From the NCBI GenBank assembly GCA_023132995.1, contig JAGLXI010000243.1, positions 1 through 28,717 of the forward strand: a DNA stretch of 28,717 nucleotides, written 5' to 3'. The position numbers were made by a program, and so were the translations under genes. Source of the stretch: Candidatus Zixiibacteriota bacterium. GTDB lineage: Bacteria > Zixibacteria > MSB-5A5 > GN15 > FEB-12. This document shows positions 8,992 to 23,528 of this stretch, one piece after another (within the stretch, counting starts at the first letter, position 1; each line of letters opens with the position of its first letter). The notes beneath the pieces were generated by a model. It ran no database searches and was not told the origin of the DNA. It saw nothing but the letters and a program-made list of their open reading frames with translations.

Positions 8992-9972
8992 ATGAACGTC
9001 AAGAACCTCTCCCGGATCGTGACGCTGTCGGCGGTTCTGGCCGTGTCTTCCCTGTCGGCCGGAAACTCCGACGAAACTAGGGAACACGAAACGCGCCCCC
9101 CTGACACCAGCATCGCCCGTGTGCTGGAATGCAGCGCGCCGATTGGAATCAATCGCTCCGACGACCCCGCTGTCCATACTGGAACGCGCCTGACACAGCA
9201 GGACACGCTCTACGTCCCCGCCGAAGCGCAGGTGACATTGCTTTTTCACGATGGCCGGGTGGTGCAGTTCGAGGGGCCAACGACGATAGGCCTGCAGTCC
9301 GGGTCAACCGGCAACAGCAAGGGACTTCTGACCAAGCTGGCCGGATCGTTGAGAGAATTGCTCTTTTCCAGTGCTAATGCCGGCCAGGATGTTCAATTGG
9401 GAGTGCGCGACGTCGGCCTGACCTCCCAGGAGAGCCTCACGGTGCCCCGCCTGATCCTGCCTATACCCAATACCAGTCTGAAAGAGGCACCAGGGCAATT
9501 GAGGTGGCAGCCGGTGGAGGGAGTTTTCCTGTACTCCGTGTCCCTTTTTGACAGCAACCAGCTCCTGTGGCAGGGGACAACCAGGAATAACTTCGTCGAT
9601 ATTGCAACGACCGACCTGAACCTGGCGCCGGGCGCTGAGTACACCTGGACCGTGGAGGCTGTTGTCGGCAATTCTTCGCTGCGTTCGCAGCCGGCGACGT
9701 TCTCTATTCTCAGTCAGAGACTCGTAGCGCAACTGAACAATGTCCTGGCTGATATTGACAACATGTCTCTGGATGGAAAATTGGCCGCCCGGTTGAAGCT
9801 GATCGCGCTGAGTGATTTCAACCTGAAGGATGCCTGCTTTGCGCAGGTGCAGGAGATCAGCAGGAGCGATCCCGGCGACTATGCGGCGCGCATGATGAAG
9901 GCGAAATTGCTTGAAGACATGGGCCTGTATGACCGGGCCGCTGAGATATACAAGGCCCTGCTGTTCAAATGA
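8992..9972 (+). CDS. Secreted FecR-like / FN3-like / TPR-like protein, probable partner of the CHASE2 protein
   Basis: Start at ATG 8992 (GGAGGT RBS), signal peptide. N-terminal 'G.RLTQQDTL.VPAEAQVTLLFHDG' is FecR-like. 'LRWQPVEG...Y.V.L...LAPGAEYTWTVEA' is FN3/DUF928-like. C-terminal TPR-like helices. ATGA overlap with the next gene. Confidence 0.7.
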   Translation: MNVKNLSRIVTLSAVLAVSSLSAGNSDETREHETRPPDTSIARVLECSAPIGINRSDDPAVHTGTRLTQQDTLYVPAEAQVTLLFHDGRVVQFEGPTTIGLQSGSTGNSKGLLTKLAGSLRELLFSSANAGQDVQLGVRDVGLTSQESLTVPRLILPIPNTSLKEAPGQLRWQPVEGVFLYSVSLFDSNQLLWQGTTRNNFVDIATTDLNLAPGAEYTWTVEAVVGNSSLRSQPATFSILSQRLVAQLNNVLADIDNMSLDGKLAARLKLIALSDFNLKDACFAQVQEISRSDPGDYAARMMKAKLLEDMGLYDRAAEIYKALLFK

Positions 9973-11903
9973 GTCGGCCAGGTAGTCGGTCACGGTTCTT
10001 GCTCCGTTTCCTGTCGGGTGCCCTCGCCGGGCGGCTGACCGTGGCCCTGCTGTCGTTGTTCGTTTTCGCCCTGGCTCTGAAATACCAGTGGCTTTCCAAC
10101 GTCGATCTGAAGGTCTACGACCTCGGAACGAGGATGAAATCGACAGCGGCCTACTCCGATGTAGCGCTGATTGCGATCGACCACCATTCACTTCAGACCT
10201 GTTTCCCCCGCCCGGCCCTACCGGTCACGAGGCATCTGGCTCAGCACTCGCGACTAATTCAGCGGCTCGATTCCGCCGGTGTAGCCCTGATCGTCCTGGA
10301 CCTGTTATTCGACCAGGCAGACACGGTCGACACCGACAACCTGCGCAGTTTTGCGGACGCTCTCGCGCGCAGCGGGAAAGTCGTCCTGGCCTGCGCTCTT
10401 GAGAGTCACGCTTTAAGCGACACACGGGGCGGCCGGGTCGCCACGCAAACACGGCTGGCTCATCCTCCTGAGGAACTCCGCGAGGCCGCCGTCATCGGAC
10501 TGGTGAACGTGCCGCTCGATCAGGATGGCGTGATCCGACGCTGTTATTTCGGCAGGGTCTTTCAGCGGGACTACCTGCCGTCTCTGTCATCCGTCGTCGC
10601 GGCCTTGTACACGGGCGGCAAGCCGCCGGTGCGAGCGGACCGCTCGGATTTCTACATCGACTACTCGCTGGCCGGCGCGGCAGAGAGAATCCCTTACGAA
10701 CAGATACTCGACGGCGACAACTGGCAGGAGTCCGTCAAGGGGAAAATCGCCATCGTGGGTATGACCGGCAATGGACCCACCGACACCCACCTGACGCCCC
10801 TGTCCCAAGGCGGGGAGGCGGGGTTCTTCAAAATCAGCGGTGTCGAGATCCAGACGCTGGCGGCGCAAACGCTGTTGATGGGAACCAGCCCGAGGCCGAT
10901 GGGCCGGGCTGTGGCTTTCCTGTTGGGAGCTGCCATAATGGTTGTCCTGGGACTGGGTGTGCGAGGACTGAACGCTGTCCTCGGGATGGTCGTGACGGCG
11001 GCCGCCCTCATTCTGCTGGTCGTTGCGGGCTTGCTTGCGGTGGCCGGGTCATCGATGATAATACCCGTGGGGGCCTATGCCGTGGGTATCGTGGGGACGG
11101 GGCTTTTGGCCCTCTCGTCGCGTACCGCCTTTCTGAGGAATCTGGCCGGACGCACTCAGCAGCTCCTATCGGACATCACGAAGGACATGACCGAGGCCGG
11201 CACCATACAGCGGAAATTACAGCCGAAAGAACTGCCGCAGAGCGACAGATTTGATCTCGGGGCAGTGCAGATCACCTGCCGGGAAGTGGGTGGGGACTAC
11301 TACGACGTAGTCGACCTGGGCAATCACAAGTTAGGCTTGCTCGTGGCCGACGTTGCCGGGAAGGGCGTACCCGGCTCACTGATCATGGCCAACATACAGG
11401 GCACGTTCCGGCACCTGGTGGGCAAGTCCGCGTCCCCCGCCGAAATCCTCGCCGAACTCAACAAGACCTCGGTAGGCTCCACCAGCCCGGAGCACAAGTT
11501 TGTCACGCTGTTCTACGGTGTTTTGGATTACGATTCGCGCCAGCTGCAGTACTGCAACGCCGGTCACTGCTATCCAATAGTCTGCTCGGCAGCGGGGAAG
11601 ACGGAGATGCTCAAGGAGAGTGGAGTGCCGCTGGGGCTGTTTGACGGCATGTCATGGCCGACCGGTCATGTTCCACTGCACGAGGGGGATGTGATCTGCA
11701 TTTACAGCGACGGAATCTCCGAGGCGGGAGGCGATGACCCGGAGAAGCAGTTCGGCGAAGATCGAATCGCAGCCTGTGTCAGCAAAAACTGCAACCGTCC
11801 CGCCGCCGAGATAAAGGACTGTTTGCTTGAGACGTGTCAGGAATTCGTAGAGGGAGCTTCTTTTAACGACGACTGGACGCTGGTTGTCGTCAAGCTCGCC
11901 TGA
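9969..11903 (+). CDS. CHASE2-domain sensor fused to a PP2C/SpoIIE (RsbU-like) phosphatase
   Basis: N-terminal TM helix. CHASE2 motifs 'VALIAID', 'LIVLDLLF', 'DQDGVIRR', 'GKIAIVG', 'SGVEIQ'. Three TM helices follow. PPM motifs GGDYYD, VADVAGKG, YSDGISE and DDWT are intact. Confidence 0.9.
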   Translation: MSRPGSRSRFLLRFLSGALAGRLTVALLSLFVFALALKYQWLSNVDLKVYDLGTRMKSTAAYSDVALIAIDHHSLQTCFPRPALPVTRHLAQHSRLIQRLDSAGVALIVLDLLFDQADTVDTDNLRSFADALARSGKVVLACALESHALSDTRGGRVATQTRLAHPPEELREAAVIGLVNVPLDQDGVIRRCYFGRVFQRDYLPSLSSVVAALYTGGKPPVRADRSDFYIDYSLAGAAERIPYEQILDGDNWQESVKGKIAIVGMTGNGPTDTHLTPLSQGGEAGFFKISGVEIQTLAAQTLLMGTSPRPMGRAVAFLLGAAIMVVLGLGVRGLNAVLGMVVTAAALILLVVAGLLAVAGSSMIIPVGAYAVGIVGTGLLALSSRTAFLRNLAGRTQQLLSDITKDMTEAGTIQRKLQPKELPQSDRFDLGAVQITCREVGGDYYDVVDLGNHKLGLLVADVAGKGVPGSLIMANIQGTFRHLVGKSASPAEILAELNKTSVGSTSPEHKFVTLFYGVLDYDSRQLQYCNAGHCYPIVCSAAGKTEMLKESGVPLGLFDGMSWPTGHVPLHEGDVICIYSDGISEAGGDDPEKQFGEDRIAACVSKNCNRPAAEIKDCLLETCQEFVEGASFNDDWTLVVVKLA

Positions 11904-11925
11904 GTTGCACAAACCCCGACGTTTT

Positions 11926-12119
11926 GGCCCACAAGACTGTCCGTGGGGCCGTCTCAAACTTGTTTGGCACGGACTACAGTCGCCGTATCCAGGTGAGTTG
12001 CCCATAGGAACCCACCTGCCGCTTCGCTCTCGGTGGGGTACCGGCGTGGCCCGGACATCTGTCCGGGTCTCAATGCAACAGTACATCAAGTGAGAAACCC
12101 GGACGAACGTCCGGGCCAC
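11926..12119. repeat. Mosaic cluster of REP-like palindromes between convergent genes
   Basis: CCCACAAGACTGTCCGTGGG; GTGGGGCCGTCTCAAACTTGTTTGGCACGG (11943-11972); CAGGTG...CACCTG hairpin (11990-12018); inverted doublet GTGG-CCCGGAC-N4-GTCCGGG (12046-12067 plus, 12098-12119 minus). Confidence 0.75.
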
Positions 12120-12215
12120 CCAGCCATAATATACAAATCCATGCGTTATCTTGAATCGGAATTGTCACTTTGTCAAAGGGAAAACCCGTTACGCTCAAGG
12201 GAAAAGGACGTTGTG

Positions 12216-12449
12216 TCAGCCTGAGATTTCGTAATCGTAGGCACTCCCCTGAATTCTGCATTTTCCTCTCCATCTGCCGTTGTTGAACGTGGCAGAGCAA
12301 GATACCTTAACACTGGATTTCCCATATGTCTTTCGCAATGCTTTGCGAGTAGCCTGCGTGATACGCTTTTCACTCAGGTACTTGAATGGCTTGTTTCTTC
12401 CGAGTCCCGGCAAAACCGTAGAAAAACCGTTTGTAACGCAAAGTTTCAT
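12216..12449 (-). CDS. Small basic hypothetical protein (77 aa)
   Basis: MKLCVTNGF...YDYEISG. ATG 12449 is preceded by GGAAGAGGG, 43 nt after the upstream gene. K/R-rich. No family recognised. Confidence 0.55.
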   Translation of the reverse strand: MKLCVTNGFSTVLPGLGRNKPFKYLSEKRITQATRKALRKTYGKSSVKVSCSATFNNGRWRGKCRIQGSAYDYEISG

Positions 12450-12492
12450 TTTGCGGACCCTCTTCCTATCGTTGACAAAACACACTCTTCTT

Positions 12493-13218
12493 TCAGAATC
12501 GATGGAAAGCCCCTGTTTGGAGTTCTGGATTTACCTTGGCAATTCTCTCCAGGAGTTGTTCGACACGCCCTATGTGCTGGTTGTACTTCTCTTTCATCAT
12601 TCGTCGCTGGTCATCATAGGCTCTAACTGAGCCATCTTCAGGCATCTTCATGATTGCCAGTTCACGGACGACATCCGCAGTATCACGATATAACCTTACG
12701 ATGTGTCTGACTATGTCCGTAAATGGCGCATTACTAATCAGGCCCGGATTTGCAAAGGTCAGCAAAGACCAATGCCAATCCTCAAGGAGATGGAGACGTT
12801 CTGCTAACCGTTTGAGTTGCGGGTGTACGGATTGATCTTGAACAACAGAGTTACAGATTGAGTCGACGTAGGCTCGGAGGGAGTTGGACGCATTCGGCTC
12901 AAACAGCATACGGGCTTCTTGGAGGAGTCCGGCGAGTTCGAGAAGAGTCCGACGTTGCTGTCGTCTTCTACCAATGGACGCAATCCATCCCCTAAAGAGG
13001 TGCGATGCAGGGATTATACTGAGCACGAGAGTTACCATGAATGCTATCCCGATGAAGCCGAGAATCGGATAACGTGCCCACAGCGGTATGGATTCCCAGT
13101 CGGTGAATAGCGAAATCGAAAATCCCACGACCCCGCCGATCAACATAAGAATTAGCTGACTGCGCGCCACTGGGGAAAGTCGCGGCCGTTCTTCGTTTAG
13201 TTGTTTCTCCCATTCCAT
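12493..13218 (-). CDS. Hypothetical membrane protein, two N-terminal TM helices + helical soluble domain
   Basis: 241-aa ORF with two hydrophobic segments (about residues 21-39 and 46-72) followed by RRRQQRR. Lower GC than flanks. No family recognised. Confidence 0.8.
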   Translation of the reverse strand: MEWEKQLNEERPRLSPVARSQLILMLIGGVVGFSISLFTDWESIPLWARYPILGFIGIAFMVTLVLSIIPASHLFRGWIASIGRRRQQRRTLLELAGLLQEARMLFEPNASNSLRAYVDSICNSVVQDQSVHPQLKRLAERLHLLEDWHWSLLTFANPGLISNAPFTDIVRHIVRLYRDTADVVRELAIMKMPEDGSVRAYDDQRRMMKEKYNQHIGRVEQLLERIAKVNPELQTGAFHRF

Positions 13219-13401
13219 CGATACTTCTCGAGCCTCATTAATGAGTTCTTGCCAACTTACACTAGATCATGGCTTGCGGTTCTACGCCTCGGGCCATGTG
13301 CCAGCATCGCTATACCAATCACAGTTTAGACAACACCCTAACCAGTCGCAATCACTTTTCGGCCATACTACATTGGCAGTGGTTTATCCGGGATTTACCT
13401 G

Positions 13402-16400
13402 CTAACTCGTCAGCTTGGCAAGCCGTGCGCGAGTGTCGGTGATAATGTCAATCTCGATCTCGGGCTCGCCCCAGTATTTGAGGACTTCCCGGTATTTGGC
13501 GGTTGCCTGCGGGATATTGCCTAGGCCTTCTTCAGCCATGCCTATATAATAGACAGCGCGCAGATAGTAGCGGGCCGAGCTTGTCTGGCGCGGTCCAGAG
13601 GTCAACTCCTGAAGGAATTCCCTGCCCCTTGCGTATTGGCCGGTCAGCACCAGAAGCTCACCCAGGTCCAGAACGCTGCTTGTGTTCCGTTGATTGGGCA
13701 TCGCAATCATTCTCTCACTGGCTGCGATCATGGCGCTGGTATCAGCCCGGCAAAGCGCGTCGAACACCTCCTCGATGACGTCGCCGATTTCCCAGAATTC
13801 AGAGGGCACTCTCGACTTGAATTCGGCCAGCGCCTCGCCAAACAACTCGCGGGCTCTGGGTGCATTGTCGGGATTCAATTTCACGAGGAGAAACGGGTAG
13901 GAGAGCGTCTGGAACCTCGAAGCCCACCGCGATGACTCGTCCGCGAAGATGGCTGCGCTGTCCAGCATGTCCAGGTCGATAAGAGAGTTCGCCAGTCTTT
14001 GGCACTGGCTCGATACCTGGGCGCTGTCGCCAGTTAGTCGTGCCTGCTCAAGACCCTCTATCTGGTAACCCAAAGCTGCATTGAACTTGCCCTGCCAGTT
14101 GGCAAGATTGGTTATCGTGGAAAAATAGGTCCTCATGAGGAACGGATCGTCCGCGTGATTCTCCTTGATCCTCTCGGCGGAGCCTTCGGCCTCCTCGAAG
14201 TTGCGCTGTAGTATGTGAACCCTCGTCAGCAGGACCAGCGCGGAGCTATTCCCGGGATCAATCCTGAGGAGTTCCTCACATTCATCGGCCGCCTCAGCGT
14301 ACTTTCCCAACCGCTGGTAGAGTGAGGCCAGGGTCTCGTACGAGGTTGGTGACGCGGGGTGGTACCTCTTGATCAGTGCGGCATGCTCGATAGCCTTTTC
14401 GTACTCTTCCTCTTCCCGGAAATGATTTGCCAGCAAGTCGTGCGCCATCAGGGATTTCGGATCGAGCATCAGCACCGTATCAAGCTGAGCCAGGGAGCCG
14501 GGCTTATCGTCTACAATCTGGCTGAGAAACAGGGAATAGAACGTCCTGGCTTCTTTGTCGTCGGGATAGTTGCCCACAAACGTTCGCAGCTTGACAAAGG
14601 CATCGTCGAGTTTCGTATTGAGCCAGGTGTCAGCGTAGATGTCCAGCATGTTCTTCTCTCGCAGCGGCAGCCTGTCCTCAAAACGTTTTGCTGCCGCGAA
14701 GTATGATGCCCCCAACTGCTGATGTCCCTGAAAGATGTGGGCCATACCGATTCTCATGTAGGGGAGAGCGAAGGTTGAGTCGATAGCAATGGCCTTCTCG
14801 AATTGGTCTATGGCATCACCCCAATGACGACCGTCGAACTTTTCGAGTCCCACAACGTAGTGCCGGTAGGCCTCCGGTGACGATGAAGTGATATCGGCCA
14901 CCTGCCGATTCTCCGCCAACAGCTCTTTGACGTTCAGTGATTGAGCGATCTTCTGCGTGAGACTGTCCACCAGTATGAACGGATCGGCCCCGACCACTTT
15001 CTCAGCAAGAATGATCTGGCCGGACGCGACGTCTTCGAGCCGGGCGTCGATCCTGATCCTGTCTCCCAGCTTATAGTAAGCGCCGGCCAATACGGTCGTT
15101 GCGCCCAGCTTCCTGGCGGCAGCTACCCACTCCCCGTGAGTGAGAGTCCCAGCGGCGCTGTCGACCACTTCGTTGAGGCAGTCAAGCATGCGGCTGCGGC
15201 TTATCAGGTTCACCGCGCCGCTCTGGGCCAGATCGGTCAGAAGAATCTCGGGGAGTCCGGCGCTGAGCCAGTCAAGGGCGGCGTCCCCGGTTTTGTTCTG
15301 AAAGCCCAGGATGGCCAGTCCATTCACCGCCCTGGAAAAGCCGGGAATCTCGAAGTACTTATCCCCGACATCTATGCCCTGCTCGGCCAGAGTCCGGGTG
15401 ATCCGTTCGCCAAGGTTCTCGACGAATGCCAGCGGGTCATCCTCCGCCGTTTTTTCCCTGGTTCCACTGAAAAAGGCTACCGTCGCAATTAAGATCAGGA
15501 GCACGGCAACGGCGCCGATGAGCCTGGGCGCAGTTATAGTGAACCGGCGGCGTCTTTTCCCAGCCAGGAGAATCTCACTGCTGACCGAGCTTGTCTCCGA
15601 TATCCCGCTATCATACTGGCGACGCAGACTGCGCAGATCGACGACCAGGTCGCGCGTGTCCTGGTAACGGTCATTGGGGTCTTTGTGCAGGCACTTGTCG
15701 ACGATTCTCTCCAACTCCGCCGGCGCCGTTTCATTCCTCTGCCTGAGAGGAACATGCCGGCCCTCGAGTATCTTGGCCAAGGTAGAGACCCGGTCGGGTC
15801 CGTCAAACGCTGGTTGTCCGGCAAACATTCTGTACAGAAGGATACCGAACGAGAAGCAGTCGGACCTGGCATCAACCGCCTCACCGCGCGCCTGTTCCGG
15901 TGACATGTAGGACACAGTGCCCAGAATCTTGCCCTCCTGGGTCAATTCCCCGGACATGGTGTTAGTGCCGCCATCTCCCCCAAACAGTCCGGCGTCCACC
16001 GGCTTTGCCAGACCAAAATCGAGAATTCTGGGTTCGCCCTGCTCGTCAATCATGATGTTGTCGCTCTTGATATCGCGATGCACGATGCCCAGCTTGTGCG
16101 CGGCGGCGAGTCCGGCAGCTATCTTCTCCGCAATGCGCAGCAGCTCGGTCATGTCCGGACTACGGGTCGCCAGATGGTCGGTCAGTGACTGGCCACTGAT
16201 GTGTTCCATGACAATGTAGGTTAAATCCCGACCGGATTCCTTATGATGCGCCGAATCCATGTCATAGATGGCCATGACATTGGGATGAGATATTTTCGCG
16301 GCCGTTTTGGCTTCCCGGCTGAAGCGGCTCATGCGGTCGGCGTCGTCGACAAACTCCTCCTGGAGGATTTTCAGAGCGACATTCCGGTTGAGCTTTCGAT

Positions 16401-16491
16401 CTTCCGCGAGGTAGACTTCGCCCATGCCGCCCTCGCCGAGCTTGCGCACGATCCTGAAGTGTGCTATGTCCTGACCTGCCTGAAACATCAT
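13402..16491 (-). CDS. Membrane Hanks-type Ser/Thr protein kinase with extracytoplasmic TolB-N/FlgO-like domain and TPR array
   Basis: LGEGGMGEVY, VALKIL, HRDIKSDN, DFGLAK and GTVSYMSPEQ. One TM helix after KRRRR. 'LAILGFQNKTGD..LDWLSAGLPE.L.TDL' domain followed by multiple TPR-like repeats. Confidence 0.95.
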   Translation of the reverse strand: MMFQAGQDIAHFRIVRKLGEGGMGEVYLAEDRKLNRNVALKILQEEFVDDADRMSRFSREAKTAAKISHPNVMAIYDMDSAHHKESGRDLTYIVMEHISGQSLTDHLATRSPDMTELLRIAEKIAAGLAAAHKLGIVHRDIKSDNIMIDEQGEPRILDFGLAKPVDAGLFGGDGGTNTMSGELTQEGKILGTVSYMSPEQARGEAVDARSDCFSFGILLYRMFAGQPAFDGPDRVSTLAKILEGRHVPLRQRNETAPAELERIVDKCLHKDPNDRYQDTRDLVVDLRSLRRQYDSGISETSSVSSEILLAGKRRRRFTITAPRLIGAVAVLLILIATVAFFSGTREKTAEDDPLAFVENLGERITRTLAEQGIDVGDKYFEIPGFSRAVNGLAILGFQNKTGDAALDWLSAGLPEILLTDLAQSGAVNLISRSRMLDCLNEVVDSAAGTLTHGEWVAAARKLGATTVLAGAYYKLGDRIRIDARLEDVASGQIILAEKVVGADPFILVDSLTQKIAQSLNVKELLAENRQVADITSSSPEAYRHYVVGLEKFDGRHWGDAIDQFEKAIAIDSTFALPYMRIGMAHIFQGHQQLGASYFAAAKRFEDRLPLREKNMLDIYADTWLNTKLDDAFVKLRTFVGNYPDDKEARTFYSLFLSQIVDDKPGSLAQLDTVLMLDPKSLMAHDLLANHFREEEEYEKAIEHAALIKRYHPASPTSYETLASLYQRLGKYAEAADECEELLRIDPGNSSALVLLTRVHILQRNFEEAEGSAERIKENHADDPFLMRTYFSTITNLANWQGKFNAALGYQIEGLEQARLTGDSAQVSSQCQRLANSLIDLDMLDSAAIFADESSRWASRFQTLSYPFLLVKLNPDNAPRARELFGEALAEFKSRVPSEFWEIGDVIEEVFDALCRADTSAMIAASERMIAMPNQRNTSSVLDLGELLVLTGQYARGREFLQELTSGPRQTSSARYYLRAVYYIGMAEEGLGNIPQATAKYREVLKYWGEPEIEIDIITDTRARLAKLTS

Positions 16492-18182
16492 GTGGCAATC
16501 CTCTTGAGCATCAACATTGTGATATCATCCGAGCGGGGAGCGTCTCCCATGAAGCCGTTAATGTCGTCCATGAGGTGGCCGACTATTCCCTCCGGCGACT
16601 CCCCCCTCGTGGCCAACAGTAGTTTTTCCAGTCTCTGCTCGCCATACAGATCCTCGCCGCGTTGGGCTTCGGTTACTCCGTCGGAGAAAACCGTCAGCAC
16701 GTCTCCCTCGTGCATTTCAACCGATCCCTCCTGCCAGGTGGCGAAATCAAAAGCCCCGATCATGAGTCCCGAGGCCTCTAGTTGCGTTACGGAGCCGTCG
16801 GCCGTGACCAGCAAGGGGGGATTGTGCCCGGCGTTGATATAGCGGATGGTGTTTCTATTCTGTTCCGCCAGACCGATAAAGAGAGTGGCGAAGTCACCGG
16901 ACACACTATTGCTGAACAACTGAAGCGAAACGCGCTCGACCGCTCTCGTGAGGTCGAACCGCTTGGATTCATACAGAATCCGGAACGATGCCAGTATGTT
17001 GGACATCAGCAAAGCCGCGCCCATGCCTTTGCCCGAAACATCTGCGACCATAAAGAGCAACCGGCCGTCGGGGAGCAGCCTGGTGTCGTAGAGGTCCCCC
17101 CCTACCAACCGCGACTGCTCCTGGAACGGGCACATTTGGTATCCTGGAAGTTCCGGGGGGGAGTCCGGCAGCAGGCTTTTCTGGATCTGCGAAGCCCGAC
17201 TCAACTCGGCGGCGATGATCTGTTTTTCCTGCCGCTCCGACACCAGGGCGTAGCTGAGCAGTTTGGAGGCTATGATATTGCCGAACGTAGCCAGCACTCG
17301 CAGGTGGTGGTCATCATAGGTGTGTGCCGGGTTGGTCGTATCGGCATAGAGGATTCCAAGGACCTTCCCTTCGTCGAACAAAGGAACCGCGATGGCCGAT
17401 TTCAGTTCCGACATGATAATGGACTGCTGCTGGGCAAAGCGGGGATCGTCCTCGGGATCGCAGATCAAAATGGCGTTTTTGTTGCTAATGATCTCGTTGA
17501 CGATGGTACGCGACAAGGTGAAAGCGCCCGGCTCCCGGCCGCCGGGAAGCAATGTAGCGGCAGTGTAGACTTCTTCCTGATTCTCAGATACGAACAGCAC
17601 CGCCAACCGCTGCGCCGAAATGACCTTGGAGATCATACCCAGCGACCGCTCCAACATCACGTGCTTCGGCTCCGGGAGAACCAGCATCTTGGCCATCTCA
17701 AACAGGGTTGCAAGAAGGTCGGGCCGGTCGGTGACCTTGGCCGGAAGTGGTTTGAGCGCCTCGTTGATGGACAGAAAAACCGAGTTCTGGGGCTCGCTTT
17801 CGGCAAGTTTGGTCTGAGTCGTGCTGAGCGGCACACTCTCGGTTTCATCGATAGCCGCCAGCCGAAATTCGGTATGGCCGAACACGATGAGGTCGTCCTG
17901 CTTCACCGTCGTCCGGCCGGATAGTCGCTCGCCGTTAACCAGCGTACCGTTGTGGCTGCCGAGGTCTGTCAGAAAGATCTGCTCAACAGACGACCCCACT
18001 TCCAACTCAGCATGCCTTCTGGATATCGTGCCGTGAGGAATACAGAAATCACATTCCTGCTTACGGCCAATGAGGTACTTCCCTTGCCTGAGTACCCAGG
18101 AATAGAACCGTTTCCCGTCGGTGCCAACCAGCTTCAACATAGAATAAACAGGCCTGCTCTCGTCAAGTTCCAACCTCTGCAT
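16488..18182 (-). CDS. FHA-GAF-PP2C/SpoIIE phosphatase
   Basis: FHA 'IGRKQECD...ISRRHAEL...DLGSHNGTLVNG'. GAF 'SRTIVNE...SAIAVPL..EGKVLGILYAD'. PPM motifs GGDLYD, VADVSGKG, FSDGVTE and DDIT. ATGA overlap with the kinase gene. Confidence 0.92.
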   Translation of the reverse strand: MQRLELDESRPVYSMLKLVGTDGKRFYSWVLRQGKYLIGRKQECDFCIPHGTISRRHAELEVGSSVEQIFLTDLGSHNGTLVNGERLSGRTTVKQDDLIVFGHTEFRLAAIDETESVPLSTTQTKLAESEPQNSVFLSINEALKPLPAKVTDRPDLLATLFEMAKMLVLPEPKHVMLERSLGMISKVISAQRLAVLFVSENQEEVYTAATLLPGGREPGAFTLSRTIVNEIISNKNAILICDPEDDPRFAQQQSIIMSELKSAIAVPLFDEGKVLGILYADTTNPAHTYDDHHLRVLATFGNIIASKLLSYALVSERQEKQIIAAELSRASQIQKSLLPDSPPELPGYQMCPFQEQSRLVGGDLYDTRLLPDGRLLFMVADVSGKGMGAALLMSNILASFRILYESKRFDLTRAVERVSLQLFSNSVSGDFATLFIGLAEQNRNTIRYINAGHNPPLLVTADGSVTQLEASGLMIGAFDFATWQEGSVEMHEGDVLTVFSDGVTEAQRGEDLYGEQRLEKLLLATRGESPEGIVGHLMDDINGFMGDAPRSDDITMLMLKRIAT

Positions 18183-18211
18183 GTGCGGATGTTTGGTGCA
18201 CGATCAGGCGC

Positions 18212-18344
18212 AAGTTAAACCGGACGCAGAACAGGGGCAAGCGGTTTCTCGGGACAGGTCGCGCTGGGTCTCATGGCGAGCGGCCGCGATGCGACCAGAA
18301 GGCTCACCAAAACCGCTTGCACTGAGAACTTGACGGCCTATTTT
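18212..18344. promoter_or_regulatory. Divergent promoter pair with an 11-bp inverted repeat at both -35 regions
   Basis: Minus TTGCCC-N17-TAACTT (18240-18212). Plus TTGCAC-N16-TATTTT (18317-18344). GCAAGCGGTTT (18237-18247) is the reverse complement of AAACCGCTTGC (18310-18320). Confidence 0.5.
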
Positions 18345-18453
18345 GCCGTTGGGGAATTATTGCGGGAGTATCCTGTCCGCATCCCCGAGGAAGGCTGGCC
18401 GGGAAACCCGGTCACAAGATTTCAAGCCGCTGGCTCAGACACTGGGAGTACCA

Positions 18454-18792
18454 ATGAAGTTTACTGATTCGCTTGAGGGAGACATCGTCTGTTTTGAGAT
18501 GTCCGGCAAGATTATGGGTGGAGAGAACACGACTCTATTCTACGGCAAGGTTTGCGAATATGTCAACCTCAACAAGAAGAGCATCATACTCGACATGGCC
18601 AAGGTCGACTGGATCAACTCGATCGGCCTGGGCATGCTGATTACAGCCCTGACCACCACGCGAAACGCCGGTGGGCACCTGGTATTGTGCAACATTGACA
18701 AAATCGAGAATCTTCTCACGGTCACGCGCCTGATCACGGTCTTCGATCACTTCGATTCGCGGGAGCAGGCAACAGCTTCTTTTAGCAACTGA
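18454..18792 (+). CDS. STAS-domain anti-sigma factor antagonist (RsbV/SpoIIAA-like)
   Basis: Start at ATG 18454 (GGGAG RBS), 112 aa. 'IILDMAKVDWINSIGLGMLI' keeps the phospho-acceptor Ser. Also 'LLTVTRL..VF'. Confidence 0.9.
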   Translation: MKFTDSLEGDIVCFEMSGKIMGGENTTLFYGKVCEYVNLNKKSIILDMAKVDWINSIGLGMLITALTTTRNAGGHLVLCNIDKIENLLTVTRLITVFDHFDSREQATASFSN

Positions 18793-18876
18793 GTCCCGGA
18801 ACACCAAGGCCAAGCCGATCCCCAAGACGATTTCCCTTCGTCACCTGTCGTCAGGCGTCGTGCAGGGAGAGGCTGT

Positions 18877-19170
18877 CCCAAAAGATTCCGTGGGCGTCTG
18901 CCGCCCCGGTTGTTCTATGTCAAGACATTGTTTACAGGTTGTATCCAGTCTCCGAGCAAAACCTGGATTCCGGGTCAAGCCCGGAATGACAATGGGTAGT
19001 TGCGTCGGGTGGCCGTTTCAAACTTGTTTGGAACGGGAATTCAGCCCGGGAAGAGACACCCCCAAGTTTGAGGATGCCACCCAGCAGGCATTGCCGGTTT
19101 TATCCGTGGGCGGCGACTCCCTCGGTCTGCCAATGACCGACGTCCACCCGGATGTGTTTGAGGGGATGGA
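18877..19170. repeat. Second mosaic cluster of REP-like / dRS3-like palindromes between convergent genes
   Basis: CCCAAAAGATTCCGTGGG (18877-18894); CTGGATTCCGGGTCAAGCCCGGAATGAC (18963-18990); GTGG-CCGTTTCAAAC-TT-GTTTGGAACGG (19009-19036) with a degenerate inverted partner (19057-19080); TCGGTC-N7-GACCGA (19122-19140). Confidence 0.75.
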
Positions 19171-19187
19171 GGGGGTTGGGGTCGGCC

Positions 19188-20270
19188 TCAGTGAGTATCC
19201 GAAGCTGCGGCACCCGTAATGTTCAAACGGGGGGCAAGTTCGGGTATAGAACGTAATTTCTCAAGGATCTTCTCGCAGGCAGGGTCCACGTTATGTGGAT
19301 CAAGCGAAACACCCTGAATACGACTCATAAGACCATAAGGCTTTTCGTAGACTGCTTCCCCGGTCATTAAGGGGCATACTGTCTTGTCTGAACCCATAGC
19401 CCAGCCACATTCTTGGTTCGTCCATAGGGACTTCCAGAATTCCTTTGTCAACAGGAGAACAATCACATCACAGGCGATTAGTTCTTCTATTATCTGAGAC
19501 ATCCAGAACACCGATACATGAAGGTCGTCGTGCGCCATGAAAACCTGAATACGATCGTTTATCAGTCCATCCTTTACTTTACCGGCCAGGTCTTTGTCAT
19601 GAGTCGAGTAGCTCATAAAGATTTTGACCTTGGTTGACACGATATCGTTGCGACTCTTGAGGAGGTCTTCGATTTCTCGTTGCTTGGCCGGATCCGGGTT
19701 GATCTTGTACAATAGCACCTTATCGACAAATCGTGGGAACTCCTTCCACCCCCTTATGCTAACAAACAGACCACCCTCCGTAAGGTCCTTTAGCCAGTCA
19801 GTCAGATCTTTTTTGCTGTCATAGAAGTTGTCCTGCAGGTGCGGAAGCCCCACTCCCTGCTGAGGCCACTTACTATTAATCGCTCCTATGAATTGCAAAA
19901 TCTCCAGCTTAAGCTGCTGTGGCTCCAACACCCTTGACTGCACTTGCTCATCAAGGGCTTTTTGAGTCAGGAGAAACTCCGACTCTTCAGGGTTAAGCGC
20001 CTTGGAAACCAAGCCAAACCGTATCGCTGTGTCATGAGTGCGGGGACTGACAACTTCTTGAGCGTCAATTTCGGCCACGCGGCTTGACACCTTAACCACA
20101 AACTGCATTCCTTCCTCCGCCGTTGGAGAGGAAGAGTCTCTGAATGCATACCAGACTGGTATTTGGTTCAGAGGTTGAGATGTCGTATTCGGCCCAGCCT
20201 GGCCGACGTCCACCCTGAATCGATACGGTCGACCGTCTATTACCGATAGCACATCGCTGAAGTGATCCAC
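19188..20270 (-). CDS. TIR-domain protein (C-terminal TIR) with an unassigned N-terminal region of about 210 aa
   Basis: 'KIFMSYSTHDKDLA...VFMAHDDL...ACDVIVLLLTKEFWKSLWTNQECGWA' keeps the catalytic-position Glu. GTG start directly after the secA stop. Lower GC than secA. Confidence 0.85.
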   Translation of the reverse strand: MDHFSDVLSVIDGRPYRFRVDVGQAGPNTTSQPLNQIPVWYAFRDSSSPTAEEGMQFVVKVSSRVAEIDAQEVVSPRTHDTAIRFGLVSKALNPEESEFLLTQKALDEQVQSRVLEPQQLKLEILQFIGAINSKWPQQGVGLPHLQDNFYDSKKDLTDWLKDLTEGGLFVSIRGWKEFPRFVDKVLLYKINPDPAKQREIEDLLKSRNDIVSTKVKIFMSYSTHDKDLAGKVKDGLINDRIQVFMAHDDLHVSVFWMSQIIEELIACDVIVLLLTKEFWKSLWTNQECGWAMGSDKTVCPLMTGEAVYEKPYGLMSRIQGVSLDPHNVDPACEKILEKLRSIPELAPRLNITGAAASDTH

Positions 20271-23246
20271 CTACTCCCCCTTGCCGTGGCATTTTTTGAA
20301 TTTCTTGCCGGAGCCGCAGGGGCAGGGATCGTTGCGGCCGACCTTGGGCATCTGACGACGAAAAGTGCGGTCCTGCTTGCCGGCCTGGGAAGCCTCGGCC
20401 ATGGGGTTTTTCTCCTGTGGAGCACCGTCCACCGACGGTGGCGGGGCGGACAGGCCCATGCCGGTCGAGTCGGCGTGCGAGGTGACCATCTGTGGTTCGC
20501 GGCGGCGCTCGGAGCGTGACTTCTCAGGCACGTTCACCCGCAGCTTGTAGACGAGATTGACAATCTCCCGGTCGACCGTCTCAACCATGCCCTGGAATAT
20601 CTTGAACGCCTCGCGCTTGTAGATGTCTATCGGTTTGCCCATCCCGCCGTGGTAGGCCCGCAGGCCGATCCCCGCCCGAAGCTCCTCGACTTCGGCAAGG
20701 TGGTCGCGCCAGTGGCGGTCGATTGTCGACAGTACAGCGTAGCGCTCCAACTGGCGCATGACTTCCTCGCCGTAAGTGGCTTCCTTCTGCGTGTAGAAAG
20801 CCATGATCGCCCCCAGGATCTTCTCCTTGAGCGATTCGCGCGTCAGCTTCTCGATATCCTCCGGCTTGAACTGGAGGTTGAGCAAGTAGATATTGCGCAG
20901 TTCCTCGGTGAAGCCCTTCAGGTTCCACTCCTCGGGGTAAGTCTTCTCTGGGCAGTGGACGTCGATAAGACCCACGAGGACATCTTCGATCAGCTCCACT
21001 ACTTCGTCCTTGATCGATTCCCGTTCGAGGGCGGCCAGGCGGCGCTCGTAGATCCATTTGCGCTGGACGTTCATCACGTCGTCATAGTCGAGCGTGTGTT
21101 TGCGGATGGCGAAGTTCTGGGCCTCGACTTTTTTCTGTGCCCGTTCAATGGCCTTGGTCACCATGCCGTGAGCGATGACCTCGCCTTCCTCGACACCCAG
21201 CTTGTCCATGACCGTGCCCAGGCGGTCACCGCCGAACAGGCGCATGAGGTCATCCTCGAGCGAGAGGAAAAACAGCGAAGAGCCGGGGTCGCCCTGGCGG
21301 CCGGCCCGTCCGCGCAACTGGCGGTCGATACGCCGTGATTCGTGACGCCCCGTGCCGACGATGTGCAACCCGCCGCGTTCCACCACGCCCTTACCGAGCT
21401 TGATGTCCGTGCCGCGCCCGGCCATGTTGGTGGCGATCGTCACGGCACCGCTACCTCCGGCGTGGGCAATGACCTCCGCCTCTTTCTGGTGGTGCTTGGC
21501 GTTGAGGACGTTGTGCGGTATTCCGGCTCTCTTGAGCATGCGGGAAAGGGTCTCGGAGACGTCGACCGTGACAGTGCCCACGAGTGCCGGCTGGCCCTTT
21601 TCGTGCTTCTCTCTTATCTCCTCGATGATGGCATTGTATTTCTCATGGCGGGTACGGTAGATCCGGTCGTCCCGGTCATCGCGCACGACCTGTACATTGG
21701 TCGGAATGACCATGACGTCCAGCTTGTAGATGTCGAAAAACTCTTGCGCCTCGGTTTCGGCGGTTCCGGTCATGCCTGCGAGCTTGTCGTACATGCGGAA
21801 GTAGTTCTGAAGAGTCACCGTCGCGAGCGTCTGCGATTCCGCTTCGATGCGAACCCCCTCCTTGGCCTCGATAGCCTGGTGGAGGCCGTCGCTGTAGCGG
21901 CGACCGGCGAGGATACGGCCGGTGAACTCATCGACAATCATCACTTTGCCGTCCTGGACGACATATTCGGCGTCCTTCTCATACAGCGAATAGGCGCGCA
22001 GGAGCTGGCTTATGGCATGCACTTTCTCGGAGCGTTCGCCGTGGACGCGGTAAATCTCGTCCGTCTTCTGCTGACGCTCTTCGGCCGAGAGTGACTCGTC
22101 GCCGTCAAGCTCCGAGAGCATGGTGGAGATGTCCGGTATTTCGAACAGCTTCTGCTCCTCGGGGGACAGTTGCATCGTGCCCGTGTCGGTCAGGGCGATG
22201 GTGTGCTCCCGCTCGTCAATGAAGTAGTGGAGGTGGTCGTCGATCTCGTGCAGTTTCTTGTCGCGCATGAAAGCTGACTCGACGCTCGTCATCAGCTTTT
22301 TCATGCCCGGCTCTTTGAGAATTTTGAGCAGTCGTTTGGCCTTGGGAGCACCCCGGTTAACCGCCAGCAACTGGATGCCGGCCTCGAATTCGTCTTCGGC
22401 TTTCTCGCCGGCAAGCAGCTTTTCCGCGTTAGAGAGCATATCGTTGATAAGCACCGTCTGCTTGCGGACGATCTTCTCGACCGTCGGCTTCATCTGGCGG
22501 TAGCGGTCATGCCCCGACGATTCCACCATGCCGGAGATTATCAGGGGGGTTCGGGCCTCGTCGACAAGGATGGAGTCGACTTCGTCAATAATGGCATAGT
22601 GGAAATTGCGATGGGCGCGGTCTTCGGCCCGCTGGCACATGTTGTCTCGAAGGTAGTCGAACCCGAACTCATTGGCGGTGCCGAAAGTGACGTCGCACGA
22701 GTACATTTCGCGGCGCTCGGCGTTGGTCATCTGGTTCTGGATAACGCCCACGGTGAGGCCGAGATACTCGTAGATCTTGCCCATCCAGTCACAGTCGCGG
22801 CGGGCGAGGTAGTCATTGACCGTGACGATATGAACTCCCTTGCCTTCCAGGGCGTTGAGATAAACCGGCAACGTGGCCACGACCGTCTTGCCCTCGCCGG
22901 TGGCCATCTCAGCGATCTTTCCCTGGTGGAGCGCGATCCCGCCGATAAGCTGAACGTCAAAGTGGACCATGTTCCACTCGGTCTCGATTCCGGCCACGTC
23001 CCACGTTTGACCCAGATGACGGCGGCAGGCCTCTTTGACCACGGCGAACGCCTCCGCCATGATGTCATCGAGCGTCTCACCGTCCTCAAGACGCTTTCTG
23101 AAATCGTCAGTCCTGGCTTTGAATTCGTCTTCGCTCTGCTTCTGCAGTTCGTCGTAGAACTGGTTTATCTCATCCACCAGCGGCTGCATCTTTTTGGCGT
23201 CCCGCTCGTGCTTGGTGCCGAATATCTTTGTGATCAGGTTCTTCAT
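20271..23246 (-). CDS. secA: Preprotein translocase subunit SecA
   Basis: [51 protein letters not shown] and C-terminal Zn motif [14 protein letters not shown]. Confidence 0.99.
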
Positions 23247-23309: not shown

Positions 23310-23528
23310 TCACAGTGTTTTGGGCCAATTGTGGGCGGCACCGGCGTTGCTGGTTTTTACGGATTGGTACCCTACCTAAAACAGGGGCGGCAGGTGGTGT
23401 ACTTCCTTTTACCCACTCGATGCTGTCTGTGTGGGGTACCTCTGTTGTGCTCCACGCCGATCAGACAATGGACGCTGGCCAGTTTGTTCTTGATACCTGA
23501 CAACAGGCGCGGTAGATTCCATCTGTAT

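Follow-up and report, generated by a model that had tools for sequence, protein, structure and literature searches.

Two segments of low guanine-cytosine (GC) content in a 28,717-nucleotide (nt) stretch of DNA from a Candidatus Zixiibacteriota bacterium are probably best explained as the contents of two independent slots for accessory genes at operon ends. The hairpin repeats next to these slots would be repetitive extragenic palindrome (REP)-like elements that occupy non-collinear, mostly convergent gaps. The stretch, referred to here as the window, is an entire contig (C161) of a metagenome-assembled genome (MAG; G000, 2.45 Mb, 347 contigs, 91% complete) from a South China Sea cold seep (PMC9357000). 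The two slots would be separate, each located at the 3' end of a conserved transcription unit, and the repeats would be elements of the REP or bacterial interspersed mosaic element (BIME) type living in gaps whose gene order differs between species, most of them convergent. Cargo and REPs would then occur together owing to a shared tolerance of, or preference for, non-regulatory DNA, as found at the ends of operons and at rearrangement joints. The comparisons described below support the view that the cargo was not captured by the REPs and that the neighboring genes arrived by other routes. They also support the existence in Zixibacteria of REP-like repeats that mark plastic junctions, as known from Proteobacteria.

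The GC content of both segments is 0.45–0.53, compared with 0.56–0.65 in their neighbors and a mean gene GC of 0.565 (standard deviation 0.029) in the genome. GC content and gene order based on Pfam matches confirmed the layout described in the first-pass annotation, in which each low-GC insert lies behind a host gene on the minus strand and faces a convergent gene across a repeat mosaic. Insert A consists of orf241 and a small open reading frame (ORF) behind a Ser/Thr kinase gene, and insert B of a TIR-domain gene behind secA. The reported lack of a recombinase and of attachment (att)-type repeats was upheld as well, with no recombinase called within ~10 kb on either side in the gene list of a matching 92.8-kb scaffold and a sole flanking direct repeat (17 of 19 nt; 19134–19152 and 20200–20218, around the TIR gene) that was judged to be due to chance. 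This repeat was rejected as an att site, as its upstream copy lies inside conserved TIR coding sequence and its downstream copy is missing in the related metagenomic contig L035. Neither mark of an integrase-borne genomic island, a gene for a site-specific recombinase or att direct repeats on both flanks, was found within this range.

At site B, the TIR-domain gene (19188–20270, minus strand; 360 amino acids (aa), Pfam TIR_2) starts with a GTG codon that abuts the TAG stop codon of secA (20271–23246, minus strand; Pfam). Gene callers begin the protein at Met55, and the 360-aa ORF is taken to be the real gene because the 54 codons upstream of Met55 are conserved in homologues. Full-length homologues immediately follow secA, in the same orientation, in a genome of the same genus (G005), in four other genera (G103, G067, G088, and G109), and in L035. 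Their amino-acid identity to the window protein is 25–36%, and 83% for L035. The homologues start at positions ranging from an overlap of a few nt with the secA stop codon to 9 nt after it. The secA-coupled TIR family is defined here by a start codon abutting or overlapping the secA stop codon, as found in the window, L035, G005, G103, G067, and G088; the copy in G109 has an internal stop. When comparing L035 to the window, secA and the TIR gene are equally diverged (~82%) in one continuous alignment, which points to joint descent. The TIR gene is thus a predicted translationally coupled partner of secA, long-standing and fast-evolving. We know of no description of such a secA–TIR pairing. As an old tenant of a variable slot, the TIR gene would be no recent arrival at this REP mosaic, and the earlier suggestion that these REPs had placed it behind secA is contradicted by the conservation of the coupling across genera. 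In at least five genera of Zixibacteria, this two-module TIR family is found coupled to secA (window, L023, L035, L043, L044, L045, and L047), and secA is kept at 71–85% identity while the coupled TIR protein drops to 25–36%.

The TIR protein comprises a β-rich N-terminal region, a middle part that is helical or possibly a winged helix-turn-helix (wHTH), and a C-terminal TIR domain. The ESM Atlas gave a weak lead for the middle part, for which a wHTH-like fold is possible. In a structure model with a mean predicted local distance difference test score (pLDDT) of 74.5, the C-terminal domain matches the TIR domains of SARM1, SpbK, and ThsB. Family searches gave weak ThsB matches, and the glutamate at position 287 of the 360-aa protein is invariant. 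Outside the taxonomic family, homologues sit behind genes other than secA. Relatives of the N-terminal module found elsewhere in the order, in other families, are situated behind NlpC/P60, DUF6125, or rpsD genes and always have a lower GC content than their neighbors. Three loci in such families (L055:3752–4867, L057:5015–6124, and L048:5062–6165) carry the same N-terminal module with a C-terminal domain that is not recognized as TIR, one such domain giving a weak match to nucleoside 2-deoxyribosyltransferase. The combination of this N-terminal module with differing C-terminal domains suggests a swappable effector.

The ancestral Zixibacteria arrangement has secA facing a convergent nnr gene (YjeF_N/Carb_kinase), at distances of 52 nt to 3.2 kb. 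In G001, the closest species (secA protein 95% identical), the slot holds a low-GC N6/N4 DNA methylase gene, and homology to the window ends at the secA stop codon, the 93%-identity secA match stopping exactly at 20270. The slot contains a Pol-β nucleotidyltransferase pair in G003 and a protein with no assigned function in G006, and is empty in G023. Cargo elsewhere includes many function-unassigned proteins and, in six genomes, an OmpA lipoprotein. The TIR gene would be the window's occupant of this slot, which in other species is empty or holds other cargo. G065 (L100:2853–4019) has a second TIR type (CAP12/Pycsar-type, 388 aa) whose start likewise lies at the secA stop codon, and short relics of both TIR types lie behind secA in G054 (L104); a profile comparison of the G065 type with the N-terminal domain of the secA-coupled family was not significant. 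In G003, the SEC-C-coding 3' end of secA recurs as a 59-nt copy (88%) just past the nucleotidyltransferase cargo (L025:3840–3898), so that the cargo is bracketed by secA-end direct repeats, an att-like signature. On the other side of secA, in the divergent upstream gap, G001 has a 3.2-kb insertion with a GC content of 0.49 (L013:3536–6750), the counterpart of which in the window (23320–23353) is 32 nt long and repeat-free.

At site A, orf241 (12493–13218, minus strand) encodes a two-transmembrane protein and, according to homologue comparison, forms the coding part of a cassette that also includes a non-coding leader of 183 nt (13219–13401, minus strand), ~88% conserved with G009 by sliding identity. 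In G009, a species of the same genus, orf241 is present at the same site with 80% amino-acid identity. The nucleotide identity between the window and G009 is 83–93% over 12493–13400, including the leader, and 45–65% inside the kinase gene (Ser/Thr kinase-TPR; 13402–16491, minus strand; Pfam), the kinase proteins being 54% identical. Such a drop in identity where the cassette ends is the pattern left by recent sharing of a cassette between species. No orf241 was found in G001 or G007, and searches of Pfam, PADLOC, and NCBIfam gave no match to the protein, nor did the ESM Atlas give anything usable. Distant homologues (24–52% identity), all of low GC content, are situated behind uvrA in G017 and G088 and behind DUF932 genes in G046. 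The homologue overlaps uvrA by 17 nt in G017 and follows it after a 21-nt gap in G088, where the next gene lies just 20 nt past the homologue, indicating insertion without a REP. Relative to uvrA, the GC content of these homologues is 0.41 versus 0.54 in G017 (L052:4347–5072) and 0.33 versus 0.49 in G088 (L053:4703–5443).

The cassette has one joint within the final ~100 nt of the kinase gene, a conserved stretch, and another at the orf241 stop codon, where the edge is sharp. Beyond this stop codon, the window has a low-GC segment (12126–12492, minus strand; absent from G009) with a small basic ORF, orf89 (77–89 aa, 12216–12485), for which no match was obtained in family searches; in G009 this position is occupied by an unrelated ORF of 103 aa on the opposite strand. 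In the preferred reading, orf241 and its leader would be a small cassette recently shared between the two species, the likely route being recombination with its anchor in this conserved kinase stretch and an illegitimate joint at the other side. Gene identities, the conserved secA–TIR coupling, the identity step, and the genome-wide statistics are observations, and the recombination mechanism and the relative timing of REPs and cargo are inferred. The earlier suggestion that REP clusters acquired the cargo genes and placed them behind host promoters does not, for orf241, agree with its own conserved leader and with the relatives behind uvrA, where there is no room for a REP.

The mosaics in the two convergent gaps draw on at least five dispersed hairpin families, here named hpA, hpB, hpC, E, and M2. 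Mosaic A (11926–12125) is comprised of hpA (11942–11972), E (12004–12043), an inverted hpC doublet (12046–12119), and a foot, GCCACCCAGCC, ending at 12125. Mosaic B (18841–19144) contains M2 (18869–18896), hpB (18955–18990), an hpA doublet (19006–19088) resembling a REP doublet forming hairpins (REPIN), and a module up to 19144 in common with contig C204; the order M2-hpB-hpA is seen again in C16. The first of the two motifs previously reported as common to both mosaics was verified (11942–11972 and 19006–19036, 87% identical over 31 nt) and is part of the dispersed hpA family. The second motif was verified in part: the copy at 18877 belongs to an eight-copy family, but the one at 11928 requires at least four mismatches and was missed by BLAST, and the partial copy at 19104 falls within the module in common with C204. 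As lower bounds, the genome contains ~25–35 copies of hpB, ~24 of hpA, 8 of M2, 7 of E, and 2 of hpC, with further hpC copies across the genus. Single hairpins of hpA, hpB, hpC, and E have predicted folding energies of −5.9 to −10 kcal/mol, with hpA at −5.9 kcal/mol, and the doublets of hpC and hpA fold at a predicted −43.4 and −28.3 kcal/mol, respectively. The conserved foot is GGGTGGC/GCCACCC; neither a GTAG nor a CGTC tag is conserved in the family consensus sequences, and the repeats matched no Rfam family. Dispersed repeats occur in only 2 of the 12 intergenic gaps of the window, namely the two convergent ones.

When breakpoints were mapped against the REP feet in relatives, as the first-pass annotation had proposed, the distal edge of insert A was found exactly after GCCACCCAGCC in both G000 and G009. 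The low-GC DNA of the window begins at 12126, directly after the hpC foot, and the G009 insert begins directly after the same 11-nt foot, there ending an hpA doublet. In both species insert A is bordered by this foot, despite differences in REP family and in the cargo next to it. In G007, an hpC copy (94% identical) with the foot lies 10 nt after the kinase stop codon and the insert is absent. G007 was rejected as a clean empty site and is kept as a weak one, because orthology of its REP cannot be shown with a kinase just 54% identical and REP copies that are homogenized. Copies of gene 3' ends were observed in two other gaps. One is a 250-nt copy (91%) of the kinase 3' end beside dispersed repeats (C155:780–1029, L020), absent from the orthologous place in G001. 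The other is a second copy of the terminal 58 nt of the TIR gene together with 54 nt downstream (19134–19245 versus C307:2055–2158, L019; 82% overall and 97% over 62 nt), and looks like a relic of a second TIR cassette.

Genome-wide statistics were based on 2026 genes called with our own ORF caller and on 1017 intergenic gaps searched against one another. Of these gaps, 75 bear REPs in this fragmented, 91% complete MAG. REPs are present in 16.8% of convergent, 8.9% of divergent, and 4.9% of tandem gaps. The fallback explanation of the first-pass annotation, that REPs simply accumulate in convergent gaps, holds (27/161 versus 48/856 other gaps; odds ratio (OR) 3.4, p = 8e-6) but is not the whole story; in the comparison with G001, 0 of 11 conserved convergent gaps carry a REP. 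Collinearity was assessed for 155 gaps against ~460 kb of G001, a sister species with ~90% nucleotide identity. REPs were found in 14 of the 50 non-collinear gaps and in none of the 105 contiguous ones (Fisher p = 3e-8). The association persisted for gaps with a net length of at least 150 nt (13/36 versus 0/34; p = 7e-5) and without the window's own contig (p = 4e-4), and 13 of the 14 REP-bearing non-collinear gaps are true breaks rather than simple REP insertions.

A specific link to foreign genes was not found. Low-GC neighbors beside REP gaps gave orientation-stratified Mantel-Haenszel ORs of 1.2–2.3 with p values of 0.004–0.55 depending on the threshold, showing no reliable enrichment, and because of this dependence none is claimed in either direction. 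For low-GC genes with the 3' end facing a REP gap the OR was 0.7–1.9 and never significant, and at breaks the unaligned neighbor was of low GC content in 5 of 13 REP gaps versus 10 of 29 non-REP gaps. The comparison with G001 indicates that REPs track collinearity breaks, not foreign genes as such. The proposed role of REP clusters as acquisition hotspots is thus retained only insofar as REP gaps coincide with plasticity. Recently acquired DNA in Pseudomonas is poor in REPs, a so-called REP desert (PMC3390384).

Several points weigh against the reading of independent slots and junction-dwelling repeats. The REP counts are lower bounds because the fragmented contigs of G000 probably break at repeats, the gene calls used for the statistics came from our own ORF caller, and the comparison covered only ~15% of G001. 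The proposed anchored recombination is derived from one identity gradient. The location of all 14 assessable REP gaps at breaks fits REPs causing the breaks as well as settling there, and the start of insert A one base past the same 11-nt foot in G000 and G009 is what a foot-directed joint would predict.

The alternative that survives best, possible but unlikely, is that REP hairpins are themselves prone to recombination, with stalled replication, gyrase binding, or REP–REP exchange creating rearrangements and illegitimate joints that admit cargo with no dedicated transposase involved. The restriction of assessable REP gaps to breaks irrespective of gap length, the REP clusters present on both sides of the kinase operon in G001 as well, the joint of insert A exactly at a REP foot in two species, and the gene 3'-end copies scattered in the repeat-bearing gaps of C155 and C307 would all be consistent with it, as is the occurrence of REPs at recombination junctions in Escherichia coli (PMC1525189). 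However, 72% of the non-collinear gaps have no REP, just one of eight collinear indels of at least 150 nt touches one, and the same association would result if REPs simply colonized new junction DNA.

Distinctly less probable is that the REP feet are the actual joints, where new DNA would, in this genus, enter beside GCCACCCAGCC through a Y1/HUH enzyme or hairpin-provoked illegitimate recombination, so that the mosaics would act as landing pads that build operon-end slots. This would explain both the REP gaps at collinearity breaks and the same-foot insertion in two species. A joint at the foot is also expected if new DNA lands between a stop-proximal REP and the stop codon, or if the REP was inserted later, and REPs are known to sit close to stop codons (PMC3733652). 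If REP hairpins did act as landing pads, genes could be gained without a recombinase, and repeats of a kind very common in bacteria would have a new role.

The route proposed in the first-pass annotation, in which a REP-associated tyrosine transposase (RAYT)-type Y1 transposase nicks REP feet and foreign DNA is joined there, placing promoterless cargo behind host promoters, is very unlikely. Genes of the Y1_Tnp family (PF01797) of RAYT-like size do exist in this group, one in G000 (truncated, at a contig end) and five each in G001, G002, and G005, and the foot-adjacent joint in G000 and G009 and the lack of a leader of its own in the TIR gene would be in line with this route. No link to a RAYT emerged, however, since at all five Y1 loci examined, a subset of those present, the window's repeat motifs are absent, so that no cognate RAYT flanked by the same REPs was seen there, and a GTAG tag is missing from the consensus sequences. 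Y1 searches of G003 and G006 were negative, secA–TIR coupling is common to genera with different downstream hairpins, orf241 has a conserved leader and relatives inserted where there is no REP, and low-GC 3' ends facing REP gaps show no significant excess. No published RAYT-mediated gene capture was found in the literature.

That the layout is an assembly artefact, a contig chimera joined through repeats and present in no cell, is almost certainly wrong. In its favor, the genome is a MAG, the window's four blocks lie at four different places in G001, and the nnr contig of G000 stops 131 nt beyond the stop codon of nnr. However, two other assemblies show this gene order across both mosaics, namely the 92.8-kb scaffold at 99.96% identity and, with 31 mismatches, an NCBI MAG contig at 99.8%, and the repeats are short (20–140 nt) with copies that are not identical.

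Between the two sites, the host genes make up a signaling cluster (8992–18792) consisting of two PP2C phosphatases, a Hanks-type kinase, and a STAS protein. Parts of this cluster are located at three separate places in G001, indicating that the clustering is species-specific. The convergent neighbor at site A is a CHASE2-PP2C (SpoIIE) phosphatase gene (9969–11903, plus strand; Pfam), for which homology to G001 stops exactly at 11904. The kinase-TPR gene and the FHA-GAF-PP2C gene (16488–18182, minus strand; Pfam) make up the host operon (13402–18182, minus strand), which belongs to one block (13433–18253) that is 88% identical to G001. The convergent neighbor at site B is a STAS-domain gene (18343–18792, plus strand; Pfam), located elsewhere in G001. 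It is displaced relative to that genome as a single-gene block (18253–18839), with one breakpoint in a repeat-free divergent promoter gap (18253–18291). No tRNAs or Rfam families were found in the window, and promoter and terminator scans of both regions gave nothing above shuffled controls.

The route proposed for site A is similar to homology-facilitated illegitimate recombination with a one-sided anchor, reportedly described by de Vries and Wackernagel in 2002, in that the identity gradient on the kinase side ends in a conserved stretch and the far edge is sharp and non-homologous. It differs from this precedent in being drawn from a single genome pair. To our knowledge, natural transformation has not been reported in this lineage.

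The hairpin repeats resemble the REP, BIME, and REPIN elements of Enterobacteria and Pseudomonas as 20–40-nt imperfect palindromes predicted to form hairpins, which are extragenic and dispersed, form inverted doublets (hpC, 12046–12119; hpA, 19006–19088) and mixed mosaics, and favor convergent gaps and ORF 3' ends, as REPs do (PMC1525189, PMC3733652, PMC3116915). In contrast to those elements, they have a low copy number in this fragmented MAG (2 to ~35 per family versus the usual >100), no GTAG or CGTC tag, and no cognate RAYT found flanked by the repeats. No description of REPs in Zixibacteria was found in the literature. REPs also serve as targets of certain insertion sequence (IS) elements and as recombination sites (PMC1525189, Tobes and Pareja 2006), which is paralleled here by the coincidence of REP gaps with plasticity and by the joint at a REP edge. 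In the systems described there, dedicated transposases (IS1397, ISPpu9/10, and the IS110 family) insert into REPs (PMC1525189), whereas the DNA beside the present repeats carries no transposase, and the association here is with breaks in collinearity generally.

The TIR protein shares with the bacterial TIR NADase effectors (ThsB of Thoeris, SpbK, and the SARM1 type) a TIR_2 domain, the structural matches, and the invariant Glu-287. Unlike these effectors, it has no adjacent ThsA or other partner, its N-terminal module is new, and within its own family it is always coupled to secA. Its neighbors are secA and the STAS gene, with no SIR2/SLOG or Macro effector detected by Pfam, so that the pair of ThsA and ThsB that makes up Thoeris is not present. 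Hot spots of accessory and defense genes occur between conserved core genes, and the secA–nnr slot, which turns over across a phylum-level lineage and includes a TIR family seemingly hard-wired to secA translation, is a useful by-product of this analysis in that respect. As in defense hot spots, a fixed core anchor (secA, with nnr opposite) is combined with variable low-GC cargo including TIR, methylase, and nucleotidyltransferase genes. Unlike them, the slot holds one to three genes, accepts non-defense cargo as well (OmpA lipoprotein, PNPOx, and sulfatase), and has in the TIR gene a tenant that appears to be translationally coupled to its anchor.

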